A stretch of DNA of 64,000 nt from Marinagarivorans cellulosilyticus (GTDB taxonomy: Bacteria > Pseudomonadota > Gammaproteobacteria > Pseudomonadales > Cellvibrionaceae). The position numbers were made by a program, and so were the translations under genes. The stretch covers positions 3,046,453 through 3,110,452 of the forward strand of contig NZ_AP023086.1 in assembly GCF_021655555.1 (NCBI RefSeq), in the 5' to 3' direction. Every line of letters starts with the position of its first letter. The first letter of the stretch is position 1. Of the stretch, positions 6,983-44,126 are shown piece after piece. The notes under the pieces were generated by a model, which saw nothing but the letters and a program-made list of their open reading frames with translations, searched no databases and had not been told where the DNA came from.

Positions 6983-6992
6983 GAGGTTGGCA

Positions 6993-8264: not shown

Positions 8265-8302
8265 AAAGTAGAGCGCACAAAGCTTGCGGTAATTCGCAAG
8301 TG

Positions 8303-9016: not shown

Positions 9017-9039
9017 GGAAATTTGTATGTCTAGTCAGT

Positions 9040-11555: not shown

Positions 11556-11556
11556 A

Positions 11557-11583
11557 AAAGGGGGAGCCTAGGCTCCCCAAGTC
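11557..11583. terminator. Bidirectional rho-independent terminator (GGGGAGCC-TAGG-GCTCCCC hairpin flanked by an A-run and a T-run)
   Basis: aaaaaaGGGGGAGCCTAGGCTCCCC sits between convergent genes. On the minus strand the stem is followed by TTTTTT. Confidence 0.7.
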
Positions 11584-11609
11584 CTCAAAATGTATTGCTG
11601 GCGGCTAAC

Positions 11610-12824: not shown

Positions 12825-12868
12825 GGTACGACTCCAAATGGTCAAAAGAGTAATCTTTAAGTTTTTAA

Positions 12869-24534: not shown

Positions 24535-26780
24535 TTGCTAAAATTACGCGGCGCAGTATTTTAAAAACAGTCGGCCTGCAAGGGCCGGGTTTAATATTGA
24601 TGGCCCCAATGCTGGGTCAGGCAGACACAGGCGATAAAGCATCAGCAGATTTTGCTTTAGGTGTATTTATTAGCATTGCAAAAACAGGTGATGTCACGAT
24701 TGTTAATCATCGCGCGGAAATGGGGCAGGGCATTTTAACCAGTGTGCCGCAAATTATTGCCGATGAATTGGGCGCCGACTGGCTGCGTGTATCTGTAGTG
24801 CAAGCCCAGGGGGATGCAAAATACGGTAATCAATCGACAGGTGGTTCGGCCTCTATTCGAAACCATTTTCCATATCTTCGCCAAATGGGAGCTGTTGCGC
24901 GCGACATGCTTGAGCAAACGGCAGCGGATATTTGGCAGGTTCAAAAGAAAGATGTAAAAGCACAGAGCCATCAAGTTATTAACCTTAAATCCAAAAAAGC
25001 TCTGGCTTTTGGCGATTTGGCCGAGCAAGCGGCTAAATTACCGGTGCCAGATATTGAATCGGTTAAGTTAAAAGATACGGCTGAATTTTCTTTAATCGGG
25101 CGCGATGTTCGGTTGGCTGGTCAAGAAGACATTGTCCGTGGCAAAACGGTATACGCACAAGATGTTCGGCTACCTAATATGCTGATTGCCAGTATCGAAC
25201 GCCCCCCTGTTGTGGGTGGCCGAGTTAAAAGCGTGAACACTGCAGCGGCCAAAAAGGTGGCCGGTGTGGTTGATGTTATTCAATTAAAAGACCGTAGCTT
25301 GCCGACCAATGTTAAGCCTGTTTCTGGCGTTGCGGTGTTGGCCACCAATACTTGGGCGGCTCATGAAGGGCGAAAAAAATTAGATATCCAATGGGATACC
25401 AGTGATAAGCGCGTTGCTCTCAATGCAAAGCATAATTCAGCTGAATACTTGGCCGAGCTGGTTTCTGCGGTGAATACCCAAGGTGATAAAGTTCGCAAAG
25501 AAGGCGATGTTTATCAGCATTCTTATAACCCCAGTAAAACAGTCGAGGCCACTTACACCGTGCCTTACCATCACCATATGTCGATGGAGCCCCCAGCGGC
25601 CACGGCAGTTGTTAGTGCTGATGAGTGCACAGTATGGACGGGCACACAAGCGCCGCAGTGGGCCAAAGGGTTAATCGCTGAAGAGTTGGGGATTGATGCC
25701 GCTAAAGTGACGGTGAATATGGCTTCGATGGGCGGGGCTTTTGGGCGTAAAGGTAAAAATGATTTTACCTTGGAAGCTGTTGAGTTAGCGAAGGCGGCAG
25801 GCCGGCCGGTAAAAGTGGTATGGACGCGAGAAGATGATGTTAAACATGGCTTTTACCATTCAATATCGGCTAATTATTGTAAGGCAGAAGTCAACGCTAA
25901 AGGAAGTGCCGATTACTGGCTGCAACGCGTTGCTTACCCACCAATTGGCGCGACCTTTAATCTAGAGGCGAAGCGCCCCAGTTTTGGCCAGTTATCGCTA
26001 GGGTTTGCTGATATTCCTTTTGAGCTTGAGCATTTATCCTGTGAAGTTCACGATGTGGAAACGCATGTGCGCATTGGTTGGTTTCGCTCGGTGGCGAATA
26101 TCAATAATGCTTTTGCATTGGGGTGTTTTGTAGACGAGTTGGCGGCTAAGGCGGGTATTTCAACCCATAAAATGTGGCTGAACTTGTTGGGTAAAGATCG
26201 CATCGTAGACCCTGCAAAAGAAGGTTTTGATGAATGGGATAATTACGGCCAAAAAACGCAGCTTCACGCGTTAGATACACGGCGCATGAAAGCAATTTTA
26301 AATCGCGTGGTTCAGGAATCTGGCGCAGATAAAAAAGTGAAAAAAAATGAAGGTTGGGGCATTAGTTATGCGCACAGTTTTAATTCCTATGTGGCCGCGG
26401 CCACTAAGGTGCGCGTAGACGGCGATAAACTAACGGTGCTAGAAATGCATACCGCTATTGATTGCGGGATAGCTGTGACCCCTGATCGTATTGTTTCGCA
26501 AATGGAAGGCGCGATGATTATGGGCTTGAGTACAGCACTGCTCAGTGAAATTACGGTAAACGATGGCGTTATCGAGCAAAATAATTTTTATGATTATATG
26601 TCGACGCGTATTAACCAGTGCCCGCCGTTGTTTGTTTATATTGCAAAATCCCAAGAGGCGCCTGGAGGCGTTGGCGAGCCAGGGTTGCCTCCGGTTATAC
26701 CAAGCATTGTCAATGCCATTTATCATGCCTCGGGTCGCCGTATCCGAGACTTGCCGGTGAATAAAGTGTTAACGGTGTAG
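24531..26780 (+). CDS. Molybdopterin-binding large subunit of an aldehyde/isoquinoline oxidoreductase-type molybdenum hydroxylase, with a Tat signal
   Basis: Twin-arginine motif [15 protein letters not shown]. At 749 aa it belongs to the xanthine dehydrogenase family 'b' subunit and overlaps the small-subunit stop (ATGA). Confidence 0.9.
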
Positions 26781-26784
26781 TTGG

Positions 26785-27789
26785 GTGGCGAGCTCGTCAG
26801 CGCAGCAGTTAATCGCTGCCATTTTATCTGCACTAAAAGATACAAGTGCGCCTAAAGCGTGGTTAGTAACGGTTATCGAAACATGGGGTAGCTCGCCTAG
26901 GCCTGCAGGTTCGATGATGTTTTGGTCCGGTTTGACGGGGGTGGTGGGCTCTATTTCTGGCGGCTGCATTGAAGAGGATGTCCTGCAAAAAATTCGCGCT
27001 GATGAATTGCCAAGCGATAGACCCAGCCAGCTCAGTTACGGTGGCAAAGGCGACCAGCGTTTTAAGTTGCCTTGTGGTGGAAAATTAACGGTTTTAGTTG
27101 AGCCATTAAGTGGCGGGGAAGAAGCTATTACCGCTTGGGAGGCGTGTTTGCGAGCGCTAAACAGTCGCCAAGGTATAGCGCGCTTTGTGGATGTCACGCA
27201 TGGTCATTGGCGCTGGCAAGGCTCAGCCTCTTTCGATTTGCATTACGAAAATAATGTCGTGAGTTACTTTGCTGGTCCTGCGCGCAAATTACTCATTGTA
27301 GGGGCAAACCCTACGGCATATCACTTGGCTGAATTTGCGAGCGCGTTAGATTTTGCCGTGACAGTATGCGACCCATCTAGTGATGTTGGTCAGTATTGGT
27401 TTGAGGCCAATTTTTGCGCGTTTAAGCCGGCTTACCCAGATGGTTTCGTTGCTCAAGATTTTGGCGATGCGCAGTCAGCGGTTGTGACGGTGTCCCATGA
27501 TCCGCGCATTGATGATATGGCATTGTTAGAGGCGCTGCCGAGCAAGGCGTTTTATGTCGGGGCCATGGGCTCGCTCGCAACATCGCACAAACGTTTGCAA
27601 AGGTTACAAAGTTTAGGCCTTAGTGTGCAAAGTTTACAGCGTTTACATGCCCCCATTGGCATTGATATTGGCAGCAAAACGCCTAGCGAAATAGCGATGA
27701 GCATCGCCGCGCACTTGGTGCAATGTTATTCGGCGCAGCGTGTATCCGCTATGGCGGCTTCCAAGGTCGCACCGGGTGTTGCTCTATGA
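26785..27789 (+). CDS. XdhC/CoxI family molybdenum-cofactor insertion chaperone
   Basis: 334-aa ORF with a GTG start directly after the large subunit. Two-domain XdhC-like layout with a Rossmann-like C-half (LLIVGANPTAYHLAEFA). Confidence 0.75.
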   Translation: MASSSAQQLIAAILSALKDTSAPKAWLVTVIETWGSSPRPAGSMMFWSGLTGVVGSISGGCIEEDVLQKIRADELPSDRPSQLSYGGKGDQRFKLPCGGKLTVLVEPLSGGEEAITAWEACLRALNSRQGIARFVDVTHGHWRWQGSASFDLHYENNVVSYFAGPARKLLIVGANPTAYHLAEFASALDFAVTVCDPSSDVGQYWFEANFCAFKPAYPDGFVAQDFGDAQSAVVTVSHDPRIDDMALLEALPSKAFYVGAMGSLATSHKRLQRLQSLGLSVQSLQRLHAPIGIDIGSKTPSEIAMSIAAHLVQCYSAQRVSAMAASKVAPGVAL

Positions 27790-28373
27790 GCGCAATAGCG
27801 CCCATAGGCTTCTTGGTGCTAGCTGCAGGTCATGCACGCCGATTTGGCCGCTGTAAGCTTACGGCAAGGCTTACGCCGGTGCAGACGGTGCTCGGTCAGG
27901 TATTAGATCATATCGCACCGGTAGGGGCGCCGGTTTGTGTCGTAACATCTGAAGCCAAGCTTGGAGTGTTAGCGCTTGCCGAGCGCAAGCGGGTTGGCGT
28001 TATCAAAATGCCGATCGACTCCTCAGGGCTTGGTGAGTCCATCGCTTATGGCGTTGCAGCAACACAGCATTGGGCGGGGTGGATTGTCTGTTTGGGGGAT
28101 ATGCCTTGGATTGATACAAGCCTTTACCAGCGAGTGTGGCAACTATCGTGTATTGGCACTGCAAAGCAAGTTGCGCCCATTATTGGTGAGAGGCGCGGAC
28201 ACCCTGTTTTTTTTGATAAGACATACGTGCATGCATTACGCGGGCTAACGGGTGATAGCGGAGCGGCCAGTCTTATTGATGATCGAGCACTGATGACGTT
28301 TAAAGCCGGTGATCAAGCGGCTTTGAGAGATGTCGATACACCTGCTGATCTCAGGTGTATCGATAAGCCTTAG
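27786..28373 (+). CDS. MobA-like NTP transferase (MocA-type molybdenum cofactor cytidylyltransferase)
   Basis: N-terminus MSAIAPIGFLVLAAGHARRFG (LAAGxxxRxG). Its ATG overlaps the XdhC stop (ATGA). Confidence 0.75.
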   Translation: MSAIAPIGFLVLAAGHARRFGRCKLTARLTPVQTVLGQVLDHIAPVGAPVCVVTSEAKLGVLALAERKRVGVIKMPIDSSGLGESIAYGVAATQHWAGWIVCLGDMPWIDTSLYQRVWQLSCIGTAKQVAPIIGERRGHPVFFDKTYVHALRGLTGDSGAASLIDDRALMTFKAGDQAALRDVDTPADLRCIDKP

Positions 28374-29114: not shown

Positions 29115-29424
29115 ATGAGTCTCCTTTGATTAGCGTGCTCTGTTGGCCTTGATGGATGGTCGGTTAACTATTGATCAAGGCCGCTAGTTGCTTGCGTAAA
29201 AGCAAGTCTTACCCGTAGGTAGCAGGGATTGTGCCGGTTTCGGATATTAGCTAAGCGGTAAGACAAATAATCTTACATGAAAGATGTTGACTCATTACAT
29301 GTAATAATAGTAATCTAGCTTTGCGGTTGTGGTGAGGCTTGTTATTCACAAAGGATTGCGAGAGGATGCAAAGCGCTTATCGGCAGGGTGCCGGCAGTGG
29401 GTACAAATGGATGTATTGCTAAGG

Positions 29425-29464
29425 ATTGGTGTTTGGATTTAGCGTGATATAAATAGCCTATAAT
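29425..29464 (+). promoter_or_regulatory. Candidate sigma70 promoter for the PspA-flotillin operon: an extended -10 TGaTATAAA at 29445-29453 and an alternative TATAAT at 29459-29464
   Basis: Sequence only, about 60-70 nt upstream of the ATG at 29520. Confidence 0.3.
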
Positions 29465-29519
29465 TGGCTACCTTACCCAATCGCAAACTTATTAACTCTT
29501 TATCTTTAGGTGACAACAA

Positions 29520-30209
29520 ATGAATATTTGGTCAAAATTGGTAACAGCGTTACGCGGTGGCGTTAATGAAGCTGGCGAGGCGATTGTGGATAGCCAGGCG
29601 CTGCGTATATTGGAACAGGAAATTCGTGACGCTTCGGTTGAGTTACAACAATCGAAAGACAGTTTGGCTTCTATTATGGCGCGCCAAAAGGTAAGTGAAG
29701 AAAAATGTAATCAATTACGTGAAAAAGTTGCAGAGCATGAAAGCTATGCACTTAAAGCGCTAGAGCAAGACAATGAAAGCCTAGCGGCTGAAGTTGCGCA
29801 AAAAATCGCTGAGATTGAAAACCGGCTGGCTAACGAAAGTGCATCATGTGAAAGCTATGCCAGCAGTGCTTCGGATTTACGCCAAGCCATTCAAAAAGCC
29901 GACGATGATTTGGCGCAACTTAAGCACGAAGTAGATACGGTTAAAGCGACCGAAAGCGTTCAAAAAGCACAGGCTGCTGTATCGGCTAAGCATAGTGGGA
30001 CTAACGCCAAGCTATTAACGGCAGCGGAGTCGCTAGAGCGAATTAAAGAAAAGCAAGCTTTGAAGTCAGCTCAAATGAAAGTCGCTGCCGAGTTAGCGCG
30101 AGATACATCGGGTGATGGGCTTGAAGCGAAGCTTAAGGATGCAGGTATAACGCCGGCAGGCAATAGCGCACAGAGCGTGCTTGCTAGGCTGAAAAACAAA
30201 CAACAATAA
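29520..30209 (+). CDS. pspA: PspA/IM30 (Vipp1/ESCRT-III-like) family protein
   Basis: N-terminus MNIWSKLVTALRGGVNEAGEAIVDSQALRILEQEIRD and an all-helical coiled-coil pattern typical of PspA. There is no pspBC/pspF nearby. Confidence 0.85.
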   Translation: MNIWSKLVTALRGGVNEAGEAIVDSQALRILEQEIRDASVELQQSKDSLASIMARQKVSEEKCNQLREKVAEHESYALKALEQDNESLAAEVAQKIAEIENRLANESASCESYASSASDLRQAIQKADDDLAQLKHEVDTVKATESVQKAQAAVSAKHSGTNAKLLTAAESLERIKEKQALKSAQMKVAAELARDTSGDGLEAKLKDAGITPAGNSAQSVLARLKNKQQ

Positions 30210-33024: not shown

Positions 33025-33054
33025 AAGGGCGGGCGCTATTTTTGCGCTTGCCCT
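33025..33054 (+). promoter_or_regulatory. Intra-operon GC-rich stem-loop (AGGGCGGGCGC-tattttt-GCGCTTGCCCT) between the flotillin and giant ATPase genes. Possible attenuator or partial terminator.
   Basis: Imperfect hairpin of about 11 bp in the 117-bp spacer. It is followed by a ctgaaaatttt region rather than a clean U-run. Confidence 0.3.
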
Positions 33055-33128: not shown

Positions 33129-36100
33129 ATGTCTACGCTTGAGTCTGTTGACGAAAAAAATGCTCTTGTTGATTCTGCTGTTGCAGAAGGAGGGGCTTAT
33201 GAAATTATCCGTCAGCGTCTGCTTGAGCAGGGCAAGGCTCTAAAGAAGTCGACAGATGCGATTAATGCCGAGCGTTTAGAAGAGTTTGGCAGTACAGATA
33301 TGGATGTTGTTGCCCGTGTTCGTGTGCGTACCGAAAATAATTCAGTGGCGAGGGATATTGTCCAGGTTGGTGAGTATTTATTATTCGGCTATAACGTTTT
33401 TATTGGTTTAAAAAAAGAAACTAAAGTTGAAGACGTATTATCTTTATTTTGTTTTAGTGAGGCCGATGGTGAATATAACCTAGAGCCTGTTGCACAAAGT
33501 GATAACTTTCTGTTTGAAAGTAGCTTCAAAAATGATTTTGAAGAGCTGTACCGTTATTACAAAAATACCAAGTTAACCCAGCTGACAGTTAAAAATGAAC
33601 GTCTGCTAGCAGCTTTTCAAATTGGCGAGCGGCTAGAGGACGTGCGAGTTTTTCGCTGGGCTATATCGGCCGATGGTAAGACACTCACCTATATAGATAA
33701 TCGTGGCGAACGCGATATTCAACTGCCAAATGCCTATGACTTTGAATGGATTGAAACACGCCGTGAAGATGTTGTACATGGCCGCCATGCGCACATCAAT
33801 ATTGCCGATACGGTGTTTGTCGATACCATTGGCGGCGATCTCACGATTAAAATAGAAAATAATACCGAAGATGGATTGGGGATATACCGGGAAAGTGTTG
33901 AAGATAAGACCCAATCTTTAGATGATGCCTCTGTTCACTACGCCAAAGTGGGTGCTTTAATTTTAATTAAAATATTGCCTTATCGTGAGCAGCAATGGCG
34001 TTATTTTATTTATAACACACTAACAGAAAGTGCATTGCGCATCGATGCGATTGGTGAAAGTTGTTTGCAGTTGCCAGAAGATCACGGTGTTATTTTCCCT
34101 GGTGGTTTCTATTTACAAACTGGGGAACATAAGTCATTTGATGATCCTGTTGAGGGTTTGCGCTTCAAACGTATGATTCGTTCACCTAATGGTGAAGATG
34201 CGCTATATGTTTTTTATGAGCCCGTTGAGGGTGTTGTGGCGCTGCTAAGTTATAACCTTATCGATAAAAGCTTGAAAAACCCTATATTGGGGCATGGCTA
34301 TGCGCTATTCGAGGATGGCCGAATTGTTATATTTACGGCCGAAGAAGAGCCTGCGCGGGTACACCCCATGCAAATTTGGCAAAGTCCATTTGCCTCGCCA
34401 GAGTACGCAAGTAAGCAGCCGGTGAGCCAGAGCTTTTATGGTCGTATCGGTAATGCCGAATTGGTTCGTGGTGTGTCCGATCTTTATAGTATTCACCGCA
34501 TTATTCAGAATCAATCTGTGTCCCTTAAGCTATACGAAGAGCTTAGCCGTACGGCACATAAGATGTTCGATAACCACTATTGGTTAGCTGAAGAAAAGTT
34601 ATCTGAAATAGGGGACACGCTAAAGCAGATTGAGAAAACATCTGAATTGGTTATTGATGAATTCGAGAAGGTTGAAAGTATTCGTCAGCAGTCCTCTAAA
34701 GCTATGCAGGATGCACAAGCCCAGCAAGAAAGTTTATTGTCGGTGGCTAAGTATAACGAATGGGATACCGTAGAGGGCTACATTGAAACCATTGGTAAGC
34801 TGCGTAAACATCGTGGTTTATTGGTAACATTAAAAGATTATCGCTATATCGATCTCGTTAAGCTGGAAGAACTTGACCGTGAAATCGTTGAAGTTAGCGA
34901 GGAATTAAGCGATAAGACAGTCTCGTTTTTATCTGGTGCTGATGCACTAAAACCTTATGCGCAAAAAATATCTCAACTCGATGAGCAAGCTGAAAAAGTA
35001 GCTACTAGCCTAGAGCTAGAGCCACTTTTAGAGCGGGTTTCTGCATTGGCCGAGAACTTAGATTTGTTATCTGAGTTGATGGCGACATTAAATATTGCCG
35101 ATGCTAATGTTCGAACACAAATTATTGATGCGATATCCACGGTTTACTCAAGTTTAAATCAAACTAAAGCGCGAATAAAAAACAAGCAAAAGAATGTTGG
35201 CTCTAAAGAAACGCGGGCTCAATTCTCGGCTCAGTTTAAATTGTTTTCGCAGACAATTAACAACGCTTTGGGCCAGTCTACAACGCCAGAAAAATGCGAA
35301 GAGCAACATGCTCGGCTGTTGGTTCAGTTAGAGGAATTTGAAAGCCAGTTTAGCGAGGTGGACGAATTTTTAGCCGATATTATGGCTAAGCGAGAAGAGG
35401 TGCAAGAAGCTTTTGAGGCGCAAAAGCAAAAGTTATTGGATGAACAGCAACGCAAAGCGGGCTCAGTGGTTGATGCAGCCTCTCGTATATTGAGCAGTAT
35501 TGAAAAGCGATCGCTCAAATTCACGGAGGCTAATGATCTTAATACGTACTTTGCATCTGACGTGCTGGTTTCTAAAGTGCGAGACATGGTAGAGCGTTTG
35601 CGCGAGCTGAATGCTGCGGTTCAAGCAGACGATATTGATGCAAAGTTTAAAGCGATTAAAGAACAAGCGGTGCGTTCACTTCGGGATAAAACGGATATTT
35701 TTGAAGATGGCGGAAAAGTTATTAAATTGGGCCCTCGCCATAAATTCAGTGTTAATCAGCAGGATTTAGATTTAACCCTTTTACCCCGCAACGATGTGCT
35801 CAATATACATTTAAGCGGTACCGATTTTTATGAGCAAATCGAGCACGATGGCCTTACAGCGCTTAAGCCTTATTGGTCTGTATCGTTGGAGTCAGAAAGC
35901 GAAGCGGTTTATCGCTCGGAATATTTAGCTTATTTAATTATCCAAGCGGCGAGAAATAATGAAGGATCCCTGTCGAATAAAGTGCTGTATGGCGCTATAA
36001 CAGATGTCGACGCGTTGACTCAACTGGTGCGGGAATTTGCTGGCCCACGCTACAAAGAAGCCTACGAAAAAGGTGTTCACGACCATGATGCTGTACGTAT

Positions 36101-38624
36101 ATTGCAAAAAATTGTGCCCTCTATGCAAAAGGCGGATACGCTAACGTACGAGCCCAATGTAAGAGCGCTGGCTCAATTGTTTTGGTGTTACTCGCAGCCT
36201 ATGGTGAATGGTGCTGAGGTAGCAAAGAAAGAAAAGTTTCAATGGAAGGTTTGGGCCTCGCGTGCGCAATCGGCTGCAAAGTTGAGTGCGTTATTCGGCA
36301 GCCTTGAAGCGACGACGCTTTTAGAGCGTGAAGTGACTGCCGCAATCAAAGAATTTGTTGGGGATTATTCGCTGTCCTTTGCTGATGGCGATTGTAAAGT
36401 GGCGGCGCAATACTGTGTTGCAGAGCTTGCTAAAGACGATCTTGCATTTGCGACAACATCCTATGCACAAAAACTTATTGAGCATTTGCGTTCTGCAGTT
36501 GATATCGGTGTTTGGGATAATTACCAAAGTAATTTAAAGCATTTAGCGGCCGAGCCCGCTGCGGCCTATGCGCTAAGCCAAGCTTGGCTAAAGGCCTTAA
36601 CCGAAAGTAAAGCCTTGCCCGATATTGCAGCCTATATCGATGAAGCCGCTGTTATTCTCGCTACCGATAAAATGAATGCTGGTGTGGATGTGCCGCGCAG
36701 GAATGTTGTGGTAGATCTCGATGTTAAAATTGACGGCTTATTGGGTGATCATCAAAAGTTAGATCAACAAACACTAAAGCTATCCCTTAATCGCTTTCTT
36801 AAAACTTTGCGTCATCATGTAGAAGTTTATGTTCCAAGTTATCATCGCTATTTAGTATTGCGCGCAGAAGTTATGCAGCAAGAAAGGGATAAGCTTCGCT
36901 TGGAGGAGTTCAAGCCTCGCCCATTAAGCTCATTTGTTCGCAACCTCTTAATCAATGAATCGTATTTGCCGATTATTGGCGATAACCTAGCCAAACAAAT
37001 GGGTACCGTGGGGGATAGTAAGCGTACTGACCTGATGGGCTTATTGATGATGATATCGCCACCGGGTTACGGTAAAACAACTTTAATGGAATATGTTGCA
37101 AGCCGTTTGGGGCTGATCTTTATGAAGATCAACTGCCCGTCGCTTGGGCACGATGTGATGTCGTTAGACCCAGAGCATGCGCCCAATGCCACAGCGAGAC
37201 AAGAGTTAATTAAGCTGAATCTAGGCCTGGAAATGGGCAATAACGTTATGTTATACCTCGATGATATTCAGCATACCCATCCCGAATTTTTGCAGAAGTT
37301 TATTTCTTTATGCGATGGAACTCGTCGCGTCGATGGTGTGTGGAAGGGTAAAACAAAGACATACGATATGCGTGGTCGAAAGTTTTGTGTGGTTATGGCG
37401 GGTAACCCGTACACAGAGTCGGGTGAAGTCTTTAAAGTGCCAGATATGCTGGCAAACCGCGCCGATATTTATAACTTGGGTGATATCTTAGGTGGTATGG
37501 ATCAGCAGTTTGCCATGAGTTACATCGAAAATAGTTTGACATCCAATTCGGTGTTGGCCCCTCTGGCTTTGCGTTCTTTGGATGATGTTTACAAACTGAT
37601 CGCCAAAGCGGAAGGCGAAAATATAGCGGCAACAGATTTAAGCCATGCGTACAGTGGTGCTGAAATTGCTGAAATTTGTGATGTGTTAAAAAAGATGTTT
37701 GTCGTACGCGATGTGATTCTTAAAATAAATCAACAGTACATTGCCTCAGCTGCGCAAAATGATAAATACCGAGTCGAGCCACCCTTTAAGTTGCAAGGTA
37801 GTTATCGGAACATGAATAAAATGGCTGAGAAAATCTCTGCTGTGATGACTCGCGATGAGTTAATGGCGATGATCGATGATCATTACCAGGGGGAATCGCA
37901 GCTTTTAACCAGTGGCTCAGAAGATAACCTGCTTAAGTTAGCCGAGCTTCGCGGCAACATGACACCCGAGCAACAGCAGCGGTGGACAGCAATTAAAGCC
38001 GACTTCCTTAAAAACAAAGATGCCGATAGCGATGCAGACGGCGCTCAGCGCATTGCGCTAAAAATTGCTGAGGTAACAGAAGCCCTGCAAGGTGTTGGTG
38101 CTGTATTTTCGCAGGAGTCTGCCGTGGTGGCGCCTTTGGCAGCTATCGGTCAGCAGTTGCACAGTTTACAAGGGCAATTATCATCGGACCCTTTGCGTAT
38201 AGAATTGCAAGAGCCGCCCCAGCAAGCGCTCAATGCCATTGCGTCGGCTATTGAGCAATCTGGCGCGGCTATTAGCCAGTCTTCACAAAAGGCGGTGGGA
38301 GAGGCACCTGCATGGCTTGAACCTCTTGAGCTTATAGCGAATAAATTTGGTGCCTTAGAATCCGTTGTTGGCGATCAAGGCATTAAGATTGATACTGGCC
38401 ACTTAGCGAATGGCCAAGGTGATCAATTGGGCCGCGTTGCTGATGTGTTGGAAAGCGCGGCTGACAAGTTAACCTCAGCCGTTGAAAAGTCCATTGATTT
38501 TGATATCACGATCGTTAAACGTATAACAAAGTTATCGGCAGAGTTGCGGGCTTTTTCTACAGAACGATTAGGTAAAAAGAAAGACAGCGATGAATTTGAA
38601 GAGCTTGGGGGTGATGAAGCTTAG
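33129..38624 (+). CDS. Giant (1831 aa) coiled-coil protein carrying a single MoxR/AAA_5-like AAA+ ATPase module; function unknown. It is the fourth gene of the PspA-NfeD-flotillin operon.
   Basis: Walker A MMISPPGYGKTTLMEY (about nt 37050-37090), Walker B NVMLYLDDIQH, and a sensor-1/Arg region FCVVMAGNPYTESGEVFKVPDMLANRADIY (NP...R spacing typical of MoxR/dynein/midasin AAA_5). An N-terminal domain of about 450 aa, probably beta-rich, is followed by about 800 aa of E/K/Q/L-rich coiled coil and an acidic C-terminus. Confidence 0.8.
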   Translation: MSTLESVDEKNALVDSAVAEGGAYEIIRQRLLEQGKALKKSTDAINAERLEEFGSTDMDVVARVRVRTENNSVARDIVQVGEYLLFGYNVFIGLKKETKVEDVLSLFCFSEADGEYNLEPVAQSDNFLFESSFKNDFEELYRYYKNTKLTQLTVKNERLLAAFQIGERLEDVRVFRWAISADGKTLTYIDNRGERDIQLPNAYDFEWIETRREDVVHGRHAHINIADTVFVDTIGGDLTIKIENNTEDGLGIYRESVEDKTQSLDDASVHYAKVGALILIKILPYREQQWRYFIYNTLTESALRIDAIGESCLQLPEDHGVIFPGGFYLQTGEHKSFDDPVEGLRFKRMIRSPNGEDALYVFYEPVEGVVALLSYNLIDKSLKNPILGHGYALFEDGRIVIFTAEEEPARVHPMQIWQSPFASPEYASKQPVSQSFYGRIGNAELVRGVSDLYSIHRIIQNQSVSLKLYEELSRTAHKMFDNHYWLAEEKLSEIGDTLKQIEKTSELVIDEFEKVESIRQQSSKAMQDAQAQQESLLSVAKYNEWDTVEGYIETIGKLRKHRGLLVTLKDYRYIDLVKLEELDREIVEVSEELSDKTVSFLSGADALKPYAQKISQLDEQAEKVATSLELEPLLERVSALAENLDLLSELMATLNIADANVRTQIIDAISTVYSSLNQTKARIKNKQKNVGSKETRAQFSAQFKLFSQTINNALGQSTTPEKCEEQHARLLVQLEEFESQFSEVDEFLADIMAKREEVQEAFEAQKQKLLDEQQRKAGSVVDAASRILSSIEKRSLKFTEANDLNTYFASDVLVSKVRDMVERLRELNAAVQADDIDAKFKAIKEQAVRSLRDKTDIFEDGGKVIKLGPRHKFSVNQQDLDLTLLPRNDVLNIHLSGTDFYEQIEHDGLTALKPYWSVSLESESEAVYRSEYLAYLIIQAARNNEGSLSNKVLYGAITDVDALTQLVREFAGPRYKEAYEKGVHDHDAVRILQKIVPSMQKADTLTYEPNVRALAQLFWCYSQPMVNGAEVAKKEKFQWKVWASRAQSAAKLSALFGSLEATTLLEREVTAAIKEFVGDYSLSFADGDCKVAAQYCVAELAKDDLAFATTSYAQKLIEHLRSAVDIGVWDNYQSNLKHLAAEPAAAYALSQAWLKALTESKALPDIAAYIDEAAVILATDKMNAGVDVPRRNVVVDLDVKIDGLLGDHQKLDQQTLKLSLNRFLKTLRHHVEVYVPSYHRYLVLRAEVMQQERDKLRLEEFKPRPLSSFVRNLLINESYLPIIGDNLAKQMGTVGDSKRTDLMGLLMMISPPGYGKTTLMEYVASRLGLIFMKINCPSLGHDVMSLDPEHAPNATARQELIKLNLGLEMGNNVMLYLDDIQHTHPEFLQKFISLCDGTRRVDGVWKGKTKTYDMRGRKFCVVMAGNPYTESGEVFKVPDMLANRADIYNLGDILGGMDQQFAMSYIENSLTSNSVLAPLALRSLDDVYKLIAKAEGENIAATDLSHAYSGAEIAEICDVLKKMFVVRDVILKINQQYIASAAQNDKYRVEPPFKLQGSYRNMNKMAEKISAVMTRDELMAMIDDHYQGESQLLTSGSEDNLLKLAELRGNMTPEQQQRWTAIKADFLKNKDADSDADGAQRIALKIAEVTEALQGVGAVFSQESAVVAPLAAIGQQLHSLQGQLSSDPLRIELQEPPQQALNAIASAIEQSGAAISQSSQKAVGEAPAWLEPLELIANKFGALESVVGDQGIKIDTGHLANGQGDQLGRVADVLESAADKLTSAVEKSIDFDITIVKRITKLSAELRAFSTERLGKKKDSDEFEELGGDEA

Positions 38625-38631
38625 GTAACGT

Positions 38632-39177
38632 TTATTTACGTCGCCACTGCCTTGGCAGTTTGGCGGCGATTAAAACGCCGGCTAGCGCTCCGAACAAGTG
38701 CGCTTCAAAGGATATCTGTGGTTGCGAAGGTAATACGCCTAGAATCATACCGCCCCACAATAGGATAACTACAATGGCGATAAGGAAGGTCTTTAGGCTG
38801 CGATTATACCAAGCGTTAGCAATGCCTAACGCCCATAATCCAAAAATCCAGCCGCTTGCGCCAATGTGAATATTGTTGCGGCCAAACAGCCAAACTCCAA
38901 ATCCACCAAGCACAATAATTAAAAAACTCACACGCCAAAAGTAGCGTATACCGTGCGCCATGGTAATCAGCGCAAAAATGCTTAAGCCAACAATATTATT
39001 TAATAAATGGCTAACACTCCCGTGTAAAAAAGGGCTGAAGACAATACCGGCTAAGCCGTTTAGTTCGCGTGGCATAATGCCAAAGCGATTAAGTTGACCT
39101 TGAAATAACCCAGTGTTTATTGCAAAAACAGCGCACAACACGAAGACCAAAAAGATAATCGTTTTTATTTTTTTCAT
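38632..39177 (-). CDS. Rhomboid family intramembrane serine protease
   Basis: Six TM helices with the catalytic GxSG (HIGASGWIFGLWA) and a downstream His (AHLFGALAGVL). Confidence 0.8.
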   Translation of the reverse strand: MKKIKTIIFLVFVLCAVFAINTGLFQGQLNRFGIMPRELNGLAGIVFSPFLHGSVSHLLNNIVGLSIFALITMAHGIRYFWRVSFLIIVLGGFGVWLFGRNNIHIGASGWIFGLWALGIANAWYNRSLKTFLIAIVVILLWGGMILGVLPSQPQISFEAHLFGALAGVLIAAKLPRQWRRK

Positions 39178-39197: not shown

Positions 39198-40514
39198 CTA
39201 TGCGCTATGTTTTAACGGTTTGGCAGCGGAGCGCGCAGGTGGGAAATAACAAATAAATTCGCTACCGCGGCCAGGCGTACTTTTAATAGTAAGCTCTGCG
39301 TTATGGCGAAGTAGTACGTGTTTTACGATGGCAAGCCCAAGCCCTGTGCCACCAGAGTTTACCGAGCGACCCGGGTCCACACGATAAAAACGCTCGGTTA
39401 AGCGGGGGATGTGTTTAGGGTCTATGCCATCGCCGTTATCGCTGACGCTCACGGTGGTGCCATCGGGGCCTTGTGCAATATCTATAAGAATAATGCCCTC
39501 GCTAGGTGTGTAGTTTATGGCATTAAACACAAGGTTGGATATTGCGCTGCGTAGCTCTTGCTCTCGGCCATAAATAAAGGCTTCTTTTGGCCCGTTAACG
39601 CTAATCAAGTGTTTACTTTCTGTGCTTATCTGTCTTGCGTCTTCAGCGACCATATCCGCAAGTGTGACTAGTGATACAACCTCTTGGCCGTGCTCTTTTT
39701 CATCGGTTTCAAGCCGGCTTAAGGTGATGAGGTCGTTAATAAGCGAGGTCATTCGCCCCGCTTGGCTTTGCATATGGGAAAGGGCTTTGTTCCACACCGG
39801 CGGAATGTTGTCGGCATCTTCTAGTGTTTCTAGGTAGCCGCGAAGCACGGTTAAAGGGGTGCGCAATTCGTGGGAAACGTTAGCAACAAAATCTTTACGC
39901 ATTTGCTCCAGTTTACTTAAGCGCGAAATATCGCGCACTACAATTAAGCGCTCGTTCTGGCCAAATTTATGTACCAGAAACTCCACTTCCATAGAATTTT
40001 TTTGCGTTAAAGTATGATCAAGAGGCTCGCTAAAGTCGCCAGTTTCGTAGTAGCGGGTAAATTTGGGGAACCGAATAAGGTTGGTTATTTTTTGCCCTAA
40101 ATCGATTGCTTGAAAGTTAAATAACTCGCCGGCAGCGCGATTCCACCATTCAATATTACCGCGCCCGTCAACAAGAATAACGCCATCATTGAGGGCGGTT
40201 GTCATTTCTTGTACGCGGTGTACCACTGCCTCTAAACGCAGTTTTTCTTTTTCGTGGCGGTTGTACATCAGCTGCACATCGTCAGCGATATCTGCCCATG
40301 CACCTTGGAGTTCTTCATTGGGCGGTTCGTTGCGCCGCGCTTGATTAACCCAAGCTTCTAGTTGATACAAGCGGGTAAACTGCCAGGCAATGTAGCCAAA
40401 GCTAAACGCTAGCAGGGCCATTACAGTGTGACCTGTCAAAAAACCCATAAGCGAAAAAACACAAAGCCAAATACAAAACCACCGAAATTCGGCTTTTAAC
40501 CCTCTACGTAACAT
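39198..40514 (-). CDS. phoR: Phosphate regulon sensor histidine kinase PhoR
   Basis: Two N-terminal TMs, a PAS-like region, an H-box VANVSHELRTPLTVL, an N box and a G box (GTGLGLAIVKH). It lies directly downstream of phoB. Confidence 0.9.
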   Translation of the reverse strand: MLRRGLKAEFRWFCIWLCVFSLMGFLTGHTVMALLAFSFGYIAWQFTRLYQLEAWVNQARRNEPPNEELQGAWADIADDVQLMYNRHEKEKLRLEAVVHRVQEMTTALNDGVILVDGRGNIEWWNRAAGELFNFQAIDLGQKITNLIRFPKFTRYYETGDFSEPLDHTLTQKNSMEVEFLVHKFGQNERLIVVRDISRLSKLEQMRKDFVANVSHELRTPLTVLRGYLETLEDADNIPPVWNKALSHMQSQAGRMTSLINDLITLSRLETDEKEHGQEVVSLVTLADMVAEDARQISTESKHLISVNGPKEAFIYGREQELRSAISNLVFNAINYTPSEGIILIDIAQGPDGTTVSVSDNGDGIDPKHIPRLTERFYRVDPGRSVNSGGTGLGLAIVKHVLLRHNAELTIKSTPGRGSEFICYFPPARSAAKPLKHSA

Positions 40515-40538
40515 AGGTACCTATCATTTTTTTGTTGC

Positions 40539-41237
40539 TTAGGCTGATATCTTGGGCGAAAAGCGGTAGCCAGCGCCGCGCACAGTTTGAATAAAACGGT
40601 CGTGCCCTTCAAGTGTTAAAGCCTTGCGAAGGCGTCGAATGTGGACATCAACTGTGCGCTCTTCAACATACACATTCCCCCCCCATACATGGTCTAGCAG
40701 TTGGTTGCGGGTGTAAACGCGCTCTTGGTGAGTTAAAAAGAATTCCAGTAAGCGGTATTCGGTTGGCCCCATTTGCACGGGGGTCTCGCCAATGGTGACG
40801 CGGTGGCTAGAAGGGTCTAGGCGCAACGCGTCTACCACTATGGGGTCGCCAGTCGATAATGAGTCGGTGCGGCGCAAAACGGCCTTCAGGCGTGCCACAA
40901 GCTCTCTCGGAGAGAAGGGCTTGGTGATGTAATCATCGGCGCCGGCTTCCAAGCCCTGAATTTTGTTGTCTTCTTCGCCTTTGGCGGTAAGCATGATAAT
41001 GGGTGTTTCAGAGGTCAGCTGGTCGCGTTTTAGGCGGCGAGCTAGCTCCATGCCGCTAGTGCCGGGCATCATCCAATCTAGAATAATAAGGTCGGGTTTT
41101 TGATCCACAATGATCGCGTGTGCACTTTGCGCGTCGCCCGCCTCTAGGCAACTGTACTCTGCCATTTCTAAAGCCACTCGCAACATGTCGCGGATTGGAG
41201 CTTCGTCGTCAACGATCAAAATCGTTTTTGATACCAT
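40539..41237 (-). CDS. phoB: Phosphate regulon response regulator PhoB (OmpR family)
   Basis: Receiver LIVDDEAPIRDM...LDWMMPGTSG plus a winged-helix C-terminus VDVHIRRLRKAL...VRGAGYRF. Confidence 0.95.
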   Translation of the reverse strand: MVSKTILIVDDEAPIRDMLRVALEMAEYSCLEAGDAQSAHAIIVDQKPDLIILDWMMPGTSGMELARRLKRDQLTSETPIIMLTAKGEEDNKIQGLEAGADDYITKPFSPRELVARLKAVLRRTDSLSTGDPIVVDALRLDPSSHRVTIGETPVQMGPTEYRLLEFFLTHQERVYTRNQLLDHVWGGNVYVEERTVDVHIRRLRKALTLEGHDRFIQTVRGAGYRFSPKISA

Positions 41238-41289
41238 TTTTAACCACCTGTAACTGCTGTTAGGTTTTCAATTAAGGTGAAGATTAAAT

Positions 41290-41307
41290 AAATCTTTTGT
41301 TGCTGTT
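41290..41307 (-). promoter_or_regulatory. Pho-box-like element upstream of phoB (CTGTCATAAAACAGCAAC on the coding strand)
   Basis: The first half-site CTGTCAT is perfect and is followed by A4 and a degenerate second half-site. It is positioned about 55-70 nt upstream of the phoB ATG. Confidence 0.4.
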
Positions 41308-41384
41308 TTATGACAGCGCCCAGATTACTGTTGCCACTGAGCACCGTAAACGACCATTTTGCGTGCATATTGGCCACGAGCACT

Positions 41385-42287
41385 TTAGTTGGGAGCGACG
41401 CTATAACTCAAAACAATGCCGATAAAAATCAGCATTCCAACCCAGTTGTTGTTGAGAAAAGCTTCGAAACAGCGGGCAGGTTTACGCCCGCGAATTAAAA
41501 ATTGCTGATAACCAAATAGCCCCGCAGTGCCCATCAAGCTTAGGTAGTAGGGCCAGTGCAAGCTAAAGCTGCTGCCCACAGTGAGCAGAATAATCAAGGT
41601 AAAAGCTTGAAGTGCAGCGGTGATGAGGCGGTCGTTTTCAGCAAAGAGAATGGCGGTGGACTTAACCCCAATTTTGAGATCATCCTCTCGATCGACCATG
41701 GCGTAAAAAGTATCGTAAATAATTGTCCAAAGTAGCACAGCGATGTAGAGCGTCCACATAGGTTTGGGCAAGTTTTCTGTCACGGCAGCGAAAGCCATGG
41801 GGATGGCCCAAGCAAAAGCAGCGCCCAAAACCACTTGTGGTAAATAGGTGTGGCGCTTCATGTAGGGGTAAATAGTCGTCAGTGCAACCGCGCCGAGCCC
41901 GGTGATTACCGTTGTGGTATTTGTCATCAGCACTAGACATAGTGCAATAAACAGCAAGCCTACAAAAAGGTAAAGTGCGAAGCGAGGGTCTAGCTCCCCT
42001 GTGGCGAGCGGGCGGTTCTTGGTGCGCTGCACGTGACCGTCTATCGCTTTATCGGCATAGTCGTTAATCACACAGCCGGCCGAGCGCATAACGACTGCGC
42101 CCAAAACGAAAATAAACAGCTCTGGCCAACGGGGTACGCCTTCAGAGGCAATCCACAGTGCCCACAGTGTTGGCCACAGGACTAAATAGATACCAATAGG
42201 GCGGTCTAAGCGCATCAATTGAATGCTGGCCTTAAGGGCAGGGTGCGCCAGTAAGGGCGGAACTTTGACGCGCGCAGCTGCCATGGC
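41385..42287 (-). CDS. ubiA: 4-hydroxybenzoate octaprenyltransferase UbiA
   Basis: Colinear with E. coli UbiA (LMRLDRPIG, LWPTLWALW, GCVINDYADKAIDGHVQRTKNRPLATG, YPYMKRHTYLPQVVLGAAFAWAIPMAFAAV, YDTFYAMVDREDDLKIG). The ORF track starts at 42395; the likely start is an internal Met at about 42287-42305. Confidence 0.9.
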   Translation of the reverse strand, partial: AMAAARVKVPPLLAHPALKASIQLMRLDRPIGIYLVLWPTLWALWIASEGVPRWPELFIFVLGAVVMRSAGCVINDYADKAIDGHVQRTKNRPLATGELDPRFALYLFVGLLFIALCLVLMTNTTTVITGLGAVALTTIYPYMKRHTYLPQVVLGAAFAWAIPMAFAAVTENLPKPMWTLYIAVLLWTIIYDTFYAMVDREDDLKIGVKSTAILFAENDRLITAALQAFTLIILLTVGSSFSLHWPYYLSLMGTAGLFGYQQFLIRGRKPARCFEAFLNNNWVGMLIFIGIVLSYSVAPN

Positions 42288-42538
42288 GATATGTGTTTTT
42301 ATCATGTGTAAGCGCGTCTTTATCATTGTGAATGGTATAGCGAAAAGAGCGATTATAGCCCGCAACAGCTCGCGAATGCTAAAGCCATTGCACATCTTGG
42401 TGTATTGAGTGGTGCGAGGGTATTAATCTGGCGCGTTCACGCACGGTGCATATGCCTTTACCTTGCTAATAGTCGAGTTGGCAATTAGCCTGTTGTTGAT
42501 AATTCCCGCTTAATTTCCCGAAAAGAGGATATTTCCCC

Positions 42539-42829
42539 ATGCTAAAAACAGAGTTGGTGGCCTTAGTTGCTGAAAATGCAGGCCTAACATCACGCCAAGC
42601 CAGCGAATGCGTTGCGAGCTTTATTGAGCAAATAACCAACGCTTTGGCCAGAGGAGAAAAGGTTAGCTTGATAGGCTTTGGCAGTTTCGCCATTAAACAT
42701 GTTGCTGCGCGGGCTGGGCGCAATCCTCAAAGCGGTGAGGCGATCACTATCGCGGCGCATAACTCGCCCGGTTTTAAAGCCGGTAGTGCACTTAAGGTCG
42801 CTATTAATGGGGGGCAGGGCAATGTTTAA
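42539..42829 (+). CDS. HU/IHF family nucleoid-associated DNA-binding protein
   Basis: HU signature GFGSFAIKHVAARAGRNPQSGEAITIAAHNSPGFKAGSALK. 96 aa. Confidence 0.8.
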   Translation: MLKTELVALVAENAGLTSRQASECVASFIEQITNALARGEKVSLIGFGSFAIKHVAARAGRNPQSGEAITIAAHNSPGFKAGSALKVAINGGQGNV

Positions 42830-44126
42830 GTTGCAATTACACTGGCAAATATTGATAGCCATAGCGGCTGCATTGTTGATTAGCCTACCGCTGTCTGTTA
42901 GTGCAGAGGTGTTTGGGATATCACTGTATGCGGTATTTGATTTTGTTGGCACGCTATTTCTACGTGGCTTGAAAATGGTGGTTGTTCCCTTGGTGTTAGC
43001 CTCGATTATTTGCGGTGTGTATGGCTTGGGTTCTGGCGAACATGTTGGGCGCTTGGGGGGCAAGACGCTTGGCTTTTATATGCTATCTAGCTTGTTGGCT
43101 ATTTGCATAGGCTTGGCTGCCGTTAATATTTCTCAGCCGGGTATTGTTGATGGTGAGCCAGCTCGCGAGCAGCTGAATTTAAGTGCTCCTGAAGAGTTAG
43201 ATGGCGCATTGGATAAAGTCAGCGGCAAGAGCACTGAAGACATCGCTGGTGTCTTTTTACGCATGTTACCTACAAACATAGTCGATGCTGCTGGTGATAG
43301 TAATCAGTTGTTGGCAGTCATTATTTTTGGCGTTTTATTTGGCCTGTTTATGAATAAGGCTGGCGCCAAAGGTCGGGAAACCTTGGCCAATTTTTGGCAA
43401 GGTGTTTTCGATACCATGATGCACATAACAATGTTTATTATGAAGTTTGCGCCAATAGGTGTTTTTGGCTTGGTGGCAAAAACAGCGATGGCAACAGGAG
43501 TGCAAAGTTTTATACCTTTGGCGGTATTCTTTTTAACCGTTGTGTTTGCTTTAGCTTTTCATATGTTCATTACGCTCGCGTTATTATTAAAAACCTTGGG
43601 TGGGGTAAATCCAATATTGCATTATCGAGCAATGTTTCCTGCTATGTTAACGGCTTTTTCAACGGCAAGTTCGTCGGCAACATTACCGGTAACGATGGAT
43701 TGCTTGCAAAAAAAGGCAGGTGTTTCCAATAAGACGTCATCCTTCGTTATCCCTTTAGGGGCAACGGTAAACATGGACGGTACGGCCCTGTACGAATGTG
43801 TTGCGGCAATGTTTATCGCGCAAGCCTACGGTTTGGATTTATCCATTGCGCAGCAGTTTATGGTGGTATTAATTGCATTATTAACCTCTGTAGGGGTGGC
43901 GGGGATTCCATCGGCGAGTTTAGTGGCAATTGCTATTATTTTGGGGGCTATAGGTTTGCCCTTAGAAGGCATTGGTTTGTTATTGGTTACCGATAGAGTG
44001 TTGGATATGATGCGGACTGCTGTGAATGTCTTTAGTGATAGTTGCTGCGCTGTGATTATGGCAAAAGCGGAAGGTGAAACGGGTGTGCTTGCGCCAAATG
44101 ATGAGATAAAACCCGAGCATGCTTAA
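42822..44126 (+). CDS. Dicarboxylate/amino acid:cation symporter (DAACS/GltP family)
   Basis: Multi-TM protein with the SSSATLP signature (FSTASSSATLPVTM) and NMDGTALYE. The ATG at 42822 overlaps the HU-like stop (aATGtTTAAg). Confidence 0.85.
   Translation: MFKLQLHWQILIAIAAALLISLPLSVSAEVFGISLYAVFDFVGTLFLRGLKMVVVPLVLASIICGVYGLGSGEHVGRLGGKTLGFYMLSSLLAICIGLAAVNISQPGIVDGEPAREQLNLSAPEELDGALDKVSGKSTEDIAGVFLRMLPTNIVDAAGDSNQLLAVIIFGVLFGLFMNKAGAKGRETLANFWQGVFDTMMHITMFIMKFAPIGVFGLVAKTAMATGVQSFIPLAVFFLTVVFALAFHMFITLALLLKTLGGVNPILHYRAMFPAMLTAFSTASSSATLPVTMDCLQKKAGVSNKTSSFVIPLGATVNMDGTALYECVAAMFIAQAYGLDLSIAQQFMVVLIALLTSVGVAGIPSASLVAIAIILGAIGLPLEGIGLLLVTDRVLDMMRTAVNVFSDSCCAVIMAKAEGETGVLAPNDEIKPEHA

Follow-up and report, generated by a model that had tools for sequence, protein, structure and literature searches.

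A predicted beta-propeller AAA+ ATPase encoded with flotillin and PspA in Marinagarivorans cellulosilyticus, a candidate remodeller of membrane scaffolds

Introduction

What might a giant ATPase do when its gene directly follows that of a flotillin, and when databases label its whole family 'DNA repair ATPase'? This question is raised by a 64,000-nucleotide stretch of the Marinagarivorans cellulosilyticus genome (hereafter the window, with positions counted from its first letter), in which one gene on the + strand encodes a protein of 1831 residues. The answer favored here, which is considered somewhat probable, is that its product is the ATPase member of an inner-membrane scaffold module encoded by a conserved set of four genes, and that this enzyme would remodel flotillin and PspA scaffolds by using ATP. 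The module is composed of a YjfJ-type PspA, a YqiJ/NfeD-like membrane protein, a YqiK-type flotillin, and the ATPase itself, whose domains are arranged in the order DUF3686, DUF7902, and AAA+.

Comparative genomics has already revealed both this architecture and its association with a flotillin operon, and the present locus is a further instance. The same operon has been described with an ATPase termed 'Betapropeller+Coiled-coil+AAA-ATPase', for which chaperone-like or ATP-dependent membrane-remodeling roles were proposed, and with a YqiJ/YuaF-type transmembrane protein, a protein carrying Band-7, coiled-coil and flotillin regions, and a YjfJ-type PspA as partners (Ravi et al. mSystems 2024; PMC11237479, section 19, Table S3). 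That report gives no motif- or clade-level description of the ATPase. The small additions made here are an invariant DD-QH Walker B motif, a pre-sensor-1 hairpin, a rod of fixed length, a near-invariant ATPase core, and a tail that is not conserved. Literature searches for DUF3686, PF12458, 'DNA repair ATPase' combined with flotillin, and YqiK/YqiJ combined with ATPase yielded no paper.

One intact gene of a widespread family

The database protein P0001 has the same length as the product of this open reading frame (ORF) and is 98% identical to it. A homologue search with the 1831-residue protein returned at least 4919 homologues at E <= 1e-5, and the 120 best of these are full-length proteins of about 1595-1882 residues with 57-98% identity. 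The protein is colinear with all 120 and the alignment is unbroken, and therefore no hidden frameshift lies within 33129-38624. A second, more diverse set was assembled from 70 representatives of 50%-identity clusters, which are 31-53% identical to the query.

Based on its domain matches, the protein can be assigned to the DUF3686/DUF7902 'DNA repair ATPase' family. Pfam recognizes DUF3686 (PF12458) at residues 38-484 (E 2.9e-203), and the trio of DUF3686, DUF7902, and AAA/AAA_5 recurs with the same architecture in 27 of 27 diverse members. Full-length members span about 1500-2040 residues, with the AAA module beginning at approximately residue 1065-1435 and mostly at 1150-1280. The family comprises at least 4919 clusters at 90% identity. 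When clusters are formed at 50% identity, about 350-630 representatives match, depending on the E cut-off (1e-30 to 1e-10), and the range of the family includes Pseudomonadota, Actinomycetota and Acidobacteriota. No NCBIfam model scored above its cut-off on the protein. Searches of PDB sequences with the protein and two family profiles gave only matches of P-loop length (RuvB, NVL, p97) and coiled-coil noise, and by this measure the DUF3686 ATPase has no solved structural relative.

Linkage to flotillin and PspA genes

Loci were compared from a one-genome-per-species collection (22 loci) and from contigs of distant members (6 contigs), and 27 of these were informative. In 24 of the 27 the ATPase gene is immediately preceded by YqiJ-like and flotillin genes, and these loci include those of Cellvibrionaceae, Oleispira, Woeseiaceae, Kangiellaceae, Colwellia, Thiodiazotropha, a deltaproteobacterial metagenome-assembled genome (MAG), and the actinobacterium Streptacidiphilus. 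A PspA gene is found directly upstream of the cluster in 13 related loci. The original prediction had called the attachment to a flotillin operon unusual, which does not hold: it is the rule in the family and was published in 2024. The features of the locus are collected in Table 1.

Table 1. Features of the four-gene cluster, of the ATPase, and of the adjoining rhomboid gene (positions in the window; residues of the ATPase)
Feature	Residues	Position	Strand	Basis or remark
PspA/IM30-family gene, YjfJ type, first of the four-gene cluster		29520..30209	+	Pfam PspA_IM30, E 2.9e-48
YqiJ/YuaF-like (NfeD-like) membrane protein, 226 residues		30251..30931	+	Profile versus YqiJ
YqiK-type flotillin (transmembrane segment, SPFH/Band_7, coiled coil, C-terminal region), 673 residues		30990..33011	+
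Giant ORF, DUF3686-DUF7902-AAA+ ATPase	1-1831	33129..38624	+	1831 residues plus stop; uninterrupted frame
Conserved N-terminal helix	22-53	33192..33287	+	AlphaFold2 helix; many invariant residues
Beta-propeller (predicted), core of Pfam DUF3686	~57-420	33297..34388	+	Pfam PF12458, AlphaFold2 strands, Foldseek
Segmented helical rod, coiled-coil-like	436-855	34434..35693	+	AlphaFold2 helices, heptad score, length invariance
DUF7902 (PF25472), within the rod	605-688	34941..35192	+	Pfam E 8e-28; 27/27 diverse members
Beta element and compact helical domain (predicted)	882-904 and 929-1184	35766..36683	+	AlphaFold2; baseline heptad score
AAA+ alpha/beta core	~1265-1450	36921..37478	+
Walker A / P-loop ISPPGYGKTT	1309-1318	37053..37082	+	Regular expression; alignments of 120 and 70
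Walker B VMLYLDDIQ	1373-1381	37245..37271	+	DD for DE; then invariant Q1381, H1382
Pre-sensor-1 beta-hairpin (predicted), RVDGVWKGKTKTYD	1400-1413	37326..37367	+	AlphaFold2, pLDDT 63-71
Sensor-1 / arginine region AGNPYTESGEVFKVPDMLANRADIY	1424-1448	37398..37472	+	G1425, N1426, P1427, R1444 invariant
Enlarged helical lid	1451-1600	37479..37928	+	AlphaFold2 helices
QGSYR motif, candidate sensor 2	1556-1560	37794..37808	+	Invariant
Variable low-confidence helical tail	1601-1831	37929..38621	+	AlphaFold2 pLDDT <50 in many segments
Rhomboid protease gene, convergent, ends 7 nucleotides past the ATPase stop		38632..39177	-	Pfam Rhomboid, E 1.2e-20

Each of the three partner genes can be tied to a known E. 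coli protein. The flotillin is 32% identical to YqiK over 465 residues (E 6e-48), and a family profile aligned to YqiK reaches 99.9%. The 226-residue membrane protein has no Pfam match, and a profile of 23 syntenic homologues compared with YqiJ by hhalign reached a probability of 91% (E 1e-6, 140 columns). The PspA-family product has 38% identity to YjfJ (E 9e-43) and 23% to PspA (E 0.006). Gene products of these types have been connected before. In B. subtilis, PspA is brought to the membrane by an SPFH protein (as cited in PMC11188069), SPFH-NfeD pairs form large membrane cages (as cited in PMC13086221), and PspA is placed in the ESCRT-III superfamily by literature cited in such reports.

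Compared to the published operon (PMC11237479), the window locus has the same domain order, neighbors, and Pfam families (PF12458 and PF25472). It differs in that neither the CesT/Tir (YjfI) gene nor the HKD phospholipase is present, and a rhomboid gene adjoins instead.

Large multidomain ATPases with propellers are also found among defense systems. It might accordingly be asked whether the cluster is an anti-phage or abortive-infection module, with PspA or flotillin and the large ATPase acting as sensor and effector, and the title of one paper connects PspA with phage stress and CBASS regulation. PADLOC gave no match for the ATPase, the flotillin or the transmembrane protein, however, and its PspA matches were coiled-coil noise. 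Furthermore, the surroundings are of a housekeeping kind (a molybdenum cofactor enzyme cluster, phoBR, ubiA, and dctA), and the family shows strong conservation and synteny from order to order, which is not typical of defense islands. A defense role is therefore given very little credence.

An N-terminal propeller on a rod of fixed length

Residues 1-1200 were modeled with AlphaFold2 from a 50-sequence alignment, giving a mean predicted local distance difference test (pLDDT) score of 76. The chain order predicted by AlphaFold2 and Pfam is linear: an N-terminal helix, a propeller, a rod, a helical domain, one AAA+ module, and a variable tail. Around the first helix the invariant residues are G21, G22, A23, Y24, R30, L31, N46, R49, E52, F53 and G54.

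The original prediction had anticipated an N-terminal globular domain, and the model identifies it as a beta-propeller, because Foldseek searches of the PDB with this model returned beta-propeller proteins, either alone or followed by helical repeats. The matches include IFT-A subunits, Elp1, KLHDC3, paraoxonase, prolyl oligopeptidase, the clathrin terminal domain, and Ctf4, with E values of 2e-7 to 1e-3 and low TM-scores (0.07-0.14 on the query). About 28-29 strands are modeled between residues 59 and 418, a count that suggests approximately seven blades.

A long helical region does precede the ATPase, as had been noted, although its coiled-coil-like part is shorter than the roughly 800 residues (450-1250) first claimed. 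Enrichment in E, K, Q and L, and a simple heptad score, which is a crude measure tested against shuffled sequence, exceed the 95th percentile of shuffles only at about residues 451-850 and fall to baseline from 851. In the model, residues 436-854 form helices of 10-54 residues separated by breaks of 1-8 residues. Thus, the coiled-coil-like part covers about 400-420 residues and is broken into segments, unlike a single long two-stranded coil. This rod carries no insertion or deletion in the 120 homologues, which are 47-77% identical across it and 68-77% identical at residues 700-900. Because its length is fixed and its sequence is in part highly conserved, the rod would seem to be a structured element with specific contacts, or a structural ruler, and not a spacer.

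These properties also fail to support the earlier description of the stalk as dynein- or SMC-like. SMC proteins and the dynein stalk have an out-and-back coiled coil, whereas the chain examined here is linear, with a segmented and length-invariant rod of about 420 residues. Membership among SMC, RecN or Rad50 proteins was likewise rejected: there is a single internal P-loop at residue 1310 in a linear chain with no split ABC head, and the protein matched no SMC or RecN model in NCBIfam or Pfam and no Rad50 model in NCBIfam.

Beyond the rod, residues of about 880-1250 are predicted to form a separate folded and mostly helical domain. The model places a three-strand element at 882-904 and a compact helical domain at 929-1184 with pLDDT values of about 90 (86-93 for 1040-1180). 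A second, degenerate AAA module was sought in residues 860-1260 and none was found, with hhalign comparisons to an AAA profile and to RuvB, ClpX, Lon, and RavA all giving probabilities below 1%; the earlier claim of a single AAA+ module agrees with this result. Conservation changes abruptly at the end of the helical domain. Among the 120 homologues, residues 1001-1250 (36129-36878) are 33-45% identical despite pLDDT values near 90, and on the other side the AAA core at 1251-1450 (36879-37478) is 83-95% identical.

The Foldseek results raise another idea, namely that the protein is a self-assembling membrane coat or cytoskeletal scaffold, similar to a proto-coatomer, whose AAA+ module regulates its own polymerization on flotillin patches. 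The top matches to the N-terminal 1200 residues are indeed propeller-plus-solenoid proteins (IFT-A, Elp1, clathrin heavy chain), and the rod is length-invariant and in part highly conserved. The TM-scores indicate, however, that these matches reflect only a propeller and generic helices. The helical part is rod- or bundle-like and not a demonstrated solenoid, and there is no evidence of polymerization. A coat of this type is judged to be quite improbable.

An AAA+ module with an unusual Walker B motif

Three motif claims of the original prediction were correct: a sole P-loop, a Walker B motif with DD instead of DE, and an NP...R pattern in the sensor-1 and arginine region. A second regular-expression match to a P-loop (AISADGKT at residue 178) lies inside the propeller, leaving SPPGYGKT at residues 1310-1317 as the only true one, with Ser at the position of the first Gly of the consensus GxxGxGK[ST]. 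The SPPGxGKT P-loop, the hhYhDDhQ Walker B, AGNP, and ANRAD are each present in 120 of 120 close homologues. Positions S1310-T1317, D1378, D1379, Q1381, H1382, R1399, G1425-N1426-P1427, and R1444 are invariant in the 70 diverse members, as are the lid columns F1553, Q1556, G1557, S1558, Y1559 and R1560. Residues 1556-1560 of the lid form the QGSYR motif, which is a candidate for sensor 2 with an inferred role. By position relative to RuvB, RavA, and YifB, N1426 would correspond to sensor 1 and R1444 to the arginine finger.

The Mg-binding Asp of Walker B is present (MLYLDD, residues 1374-1379), and the position of the catalytic Glu is occupied by an invariant Asp. Judging from the alignments, this DD-QH arrangement appears to be an unusual catalytic constellation. 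Within the DDIQH segment (37260-37274; residues 1378-1382) that carries the Glu-to-Asp change, I1380 is nearly invariant even at 31% overall identity.

Among the 120 homologues, whose overall identity is about 60%, the AAA core reaches 91-95% identity and the remainder 33-80%. This near-invariance of the core relative to the rest of the chain argues for a working enzyme.

A second AlphaFold2 model (model B, residues 1150-1831) predicts an alpha/beta core at about residues 1299-1494 and a large helical lid, which is the AAA+ fold. It places a hairpin ahead of the sensor-1 strand and behind the helix that follows Walker B, and the strands of this hairpin are residues 251-256 and 259-264 of the model. 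The hairpin (residues 1400-1413) is rich in Lys and Arg and carries Trp and Tyr. No Clp/Vps4-type pore loop of aromatic and hydrophobic residues can be seen in the segment from strand 2 to helix 2, and therefore substrate threading is not proposed. The basic, aromatic hairpin predicted before sensor 1 is the most obvious candidate for a working element in the pore.

Placement among AAA+ clades

The AAA+ module lies far from mainstream AAA+ sequences, since a phmmer search with residues 1231-1620 against 1.84 billion cluster representatives gave 831 matches at E <= 1e-3 (349 at E <= 1e-30), and the 150 matches listed are essentially its own family and fragments thereof.

A classical AAA identity of the Vps4/FtsH/p97 kind was considered and rejected, as had been anticipated. 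The PF00004 match is confined to 40 residues (1307-1346, profile positions 2-41 of 131; AAA_22 also matches), a pre-sensor-1 hairpin is predicted, and the GNP...NRAD pattern stands where FtsH has TNRPDVLDPALLRPGRFD. Because of the predicted hairpin and the short PF00004 match, the module is placed in the pre-sensor-1-hairpin superclade, to the exclusion of the classical Vps4/FtsH clade. This hairpin is common to the MoxR/AAA_5 group and to the RuvB/Clp/Lon group.

Within the superclade, an AAA_5 assignment is plausible, and the original description of the module as AAA_5-like stands in part. Pfam AAA_5 matches residues 1306-1429, or profile positions 2-125 of 139, and its score of 24.0 bits passes the cut-off of 22 by a small margin. 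It also matches 24 of 27 diverse members (best E 4.4e-8); the margins of AAA_5 over MCM, ClpA, RuvB and Lon are also small. In structural comparisons of the alpha/beta part, the MoxR-type proteins NorQ and CbbQ rank best. The spacing from the Walker A Lys to the Walker B Asp is 62 residues, equal to that of E. coli RavA and 17 more than the 45 of RuvB. Also shared with MoxR-type proteins is an arginine 18 residues after GNP. What does not fit is the profile evidence. When the family profile was aligned by hhalign with single E. coli sequences in local mode, an approach of limited sensitivity, the values were RuvB 95.8%, ClpX 90.7%, FtsH 90.2%, Lon 88.7%, YifB 85.8%, McrB 67%, PspF 24%, and RavA 19%, the lowest. 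In addition, the helix-2 region is modeled as a conserved 14-residue loop followed by a helix with no beta-hairpin insert (pLDDT of about 80-89), no VWA/MIDAS partner is present in the 1831-residue protein or in the neighboring genes, Walker B reads DD rather than DE, and a 1260-residue extension precedes the module.

A rival explanation draws on the MoxR-type features. The protein could be a maturation chaperone or client remodeler that folds, extracts or inserts client membrane proteins in a flotillin microdomain, with its propeller serving as a client adaptor, in the manner of FtsH in HflK/C cages minus the protease domain. The AAA_5 matches, the NorQ and CbbQ likeness, and the RavA-like spacing all suit such an enzyme. 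Furthermore, S. aureus FloA-NfeD stabilizes unfolded proteins (as cited in PMC13086221), and the recurrent adjacent rhomboid proteases hint at the handling of membrane-protein clients. The lack of a VWA/MIDAS partner and the low RavA alignment speak against it, however, and no client is identifiable. The linkage to scaffold genes fits a chaperone and a scaffold remodeler equally. Overall, a MoxR-like chaperone is considered unlikely, although it is the main rival.

The RuvB alignment invites a different interpretation, which is that the protein is a true DNA repair or nucleic-acid motor, RuvB- or SMC-like, whose basic hairpin binds DNA. RuvB is the best match of the family profile (E 8e-9), RuvB_N is matched by 17 of 27 diverse members, and the Lys/Arg-rich hairpin with its Trp and Tyr could suit a nucleic-acid ligand. 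The likeness to RuvB and the HslU/ClpX/Lon/RuvB group extends to the P-loop with strand 2 (LLLxxPPGxGKTTL...G...GP.L), to a D-[DE]-I-[QH]-[HR] Walker B, and to the pre-sensor-1 hairpin. Also, in the Thermoanaerobaculia MAG locus (L032), where the ATPase gene stands alone, a ResIII/DEAD/Helicase_C gene follows it, and this is the sole context among the loci compared that could suit a nucleic-acid role.

Nevertheless, the RuvB likeness is limited to about 75 columns from the P-loop to Walker B. Hidden Markov model searches of PDB sequences likewise recovered only the P-loop segment of RuvB, NVL, p97, and Rpt3. With the NCBIfam RuvB model the score is 13.6 bits, far short of the cut-off of 299, and the single internal P-loop differs from a split ABC head. 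Relative to RuvB, the module is 17 residues longer from Walker A to Walker B; it also lacks an aromatic pore loop of the Clp type and is accompanied by neither RuvA nor a DNA context. In 24 of 27 loci the neighboring genes encode membrane proteins, and repair genes are absent from the vicinity. Moreover, the 'DNA repair' name derives from the description line of Pfam DUF3686 ('ATPase involved in DNA repair') and not from any experiment found, which is the generic misannotation that had been foreseen. Hence, a role in DNA repair is regarded as very improbable.

A C-terminal tail that varies among relatives

The original prediction had described the C-terminus as acidic, which is true of the 1831-residue protein itself but not of the family architecture. 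Residues 1651-1831 are 11-20% identical with 19-55% gaps among the 120 homologues, in which the last 20 residues have a mean net charge of about 0 and are negative in 45%. An acidic C-terminal tip is limited to the closest relatives. By this comparison, the acidic tail is lineage-specific and not a family feature.

A possible mechanism of scaffold remodeling

AAA+ proteins of the pre-sensor-1 superclade generally assemble into rings, and for this reason the AAA+ modules of the ATPase would be expected to form a ring as well. The propellers, kept at a fixed distance by the rods, might dock on the cytoplasmic face of the flotillin/YqiJ cage, on PspA polymers, or on both. ATP turnover could then assemble, remodel or dismantle the scaffold during envelope stress, and the invariant DD-QH Walker B might confer a modified, possibly slow or gated, hydrolysis step. 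The functional analogues of such an enzyme, although not its homologues, would be Vps4 in its action on ESCRT-III and FtsH within the HflK/C cage.

Several observations weigh against ATP-driven scaffold remodeling as the function of the family. The link to flotillin is not obligatory, since three loci carry the ATPase without an adjacent flotillin gene (L015 at 4055-8836, L032 at 1375-9184, and L036 at 7001-12847). PspA is absent beside the cluster in Colwellia, the actinobacterium, and others. Confidence in the model of the ATPase half is only moderate, at a mean pLDDT of 65 and with values under 50 in the P-loop and sensor-1 segments, and the searchable literature contained no experimental study of any family member. 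That the modules form a ring, what the propellers dock onto, and whether the enzyme favors assembly or disassembly have all been inferred.

Like Vps4, the ATPase is encoded beside an ESCRT-III-superfamily gene (PspA) and has a putative substrate-binding module at its N-terminus, a functional analogy only. Vps4 belongs to the classical clade without a pre-sensor-1 hairpin, carries a MIT domain where the DUF3686 ATPase has a propeller and rod, and the tightest genomic link of the latter is to flotillin rather than to PspA.

SPFH scaffolds are combined with an AAA+ enzyme in FtsH-HflK/C, and with an AAA+ enzyme and a rhomboid protease in the mitochondrial SLP2-PARL-YME1L complex. The likeness to the present cluster lies in the pairing of scaffold and ATPase and in the rhomboid gene that recurs beside it. 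The DUF3686 ATPase differs in having no protease domain and no transmembrane segment, its homology to these enzymes stops at the AAA+ fold, and the rhomboid is linked by position alone, in 7 loci.

A bolder version of the remodeling proposal can be formulated, in which the family would be the long-missing, dedicated ATP-driven machine for SPFH/flotillin cages and PspA polymers. Its ring of AAA+ modules with pre-sensor-1 hairpins would carry six propellers on rigid rods of fixed length, gripping and remodeling the scaffold as a bacterial counterpart in function of Vps4 with an unusual DD-QH site, and possibly working with the neighboring rhomboid as in SLP2-PARL-YME1L. This more detailed scheme is offered tentatively and may well go too far.

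Neighboring genes and regulatory features

Rhomboid homologues lie beside the cluster in six related loci (L002, L003, L005, L014, L019, and L022), or seven with the window. In four of the six the gene is downstream on the same strand, and in two it is located just before the YqiJ-like gene. The rhomboid is at most a possible component of the system.

The flotillin may escape automatic annotation. The full-length protein has no Pfam or PDB sequence match, presumably due to its long Ala/Glu-rich coiled coil, and the first 220 residues alone yield Band_7 at 3.8e-9; several syntenic homologues likewise have no Pfam entry. Residues 551-650 of the flotillin are conserved and were considered as a C-terminal docking module that ATPase-linked flotillins would have and YqiK would lack, but the comparison with the single YqiK sequence (2%) carries too little weight for this.

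The YjfJ-type PspA gene has no adjacent YjfI/CesT-Tir, pspBC or pspF gene. A sigma-54 promoter, as expected from E. coli pspA, was sought ahead of it and no + strand match was found in 29115-29519; the count of sigma-54 matches across the window equals chance expectation. Scans for sigma-70 promoters and terminators were no richer than those of shuffled sequences. Within the 117-nucleotide gap between the flotillin and ATPase genes, a G+C-rich stem-loop with a 10-bp stem and no clear T-run is located right after the flotillin stop (33027-33053), and the folding energy computed for the entire gap is -30.4 kcal/mol (z = -1.8). This stem-loop could lower ATPase expression relative to that of the scaffold genes, or might be a site of mRNA processing.

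The flanks carry a molybdopterin-enzyme cluster on one side (24531-28373; a xanthine dehydrogenase-like subunit, XdhC, and a MobA-like protein) and phoR-phoB, a UbiA prenyltransferase, and a DctA-type symporter on the other (39198-44126). No sign of a mobile element or defense island was seen in either flank.

Concluding remarks

The value of the window is that it provides a clean and complete example of the operon rather than a discovery. The misleading 'DNA repair' label continues to spread through the annotation of a widespread family. The operon exemplifies an uncharacterized, putative membrane-remodeling system that is probably important. Bacterial flotillins and PspA have been studied as passive, ATP-independent membrane organizers. 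A conserved giant AAA+ partner would imply that, in many bacteria, these scaffolds are actively assembled or dismantled.

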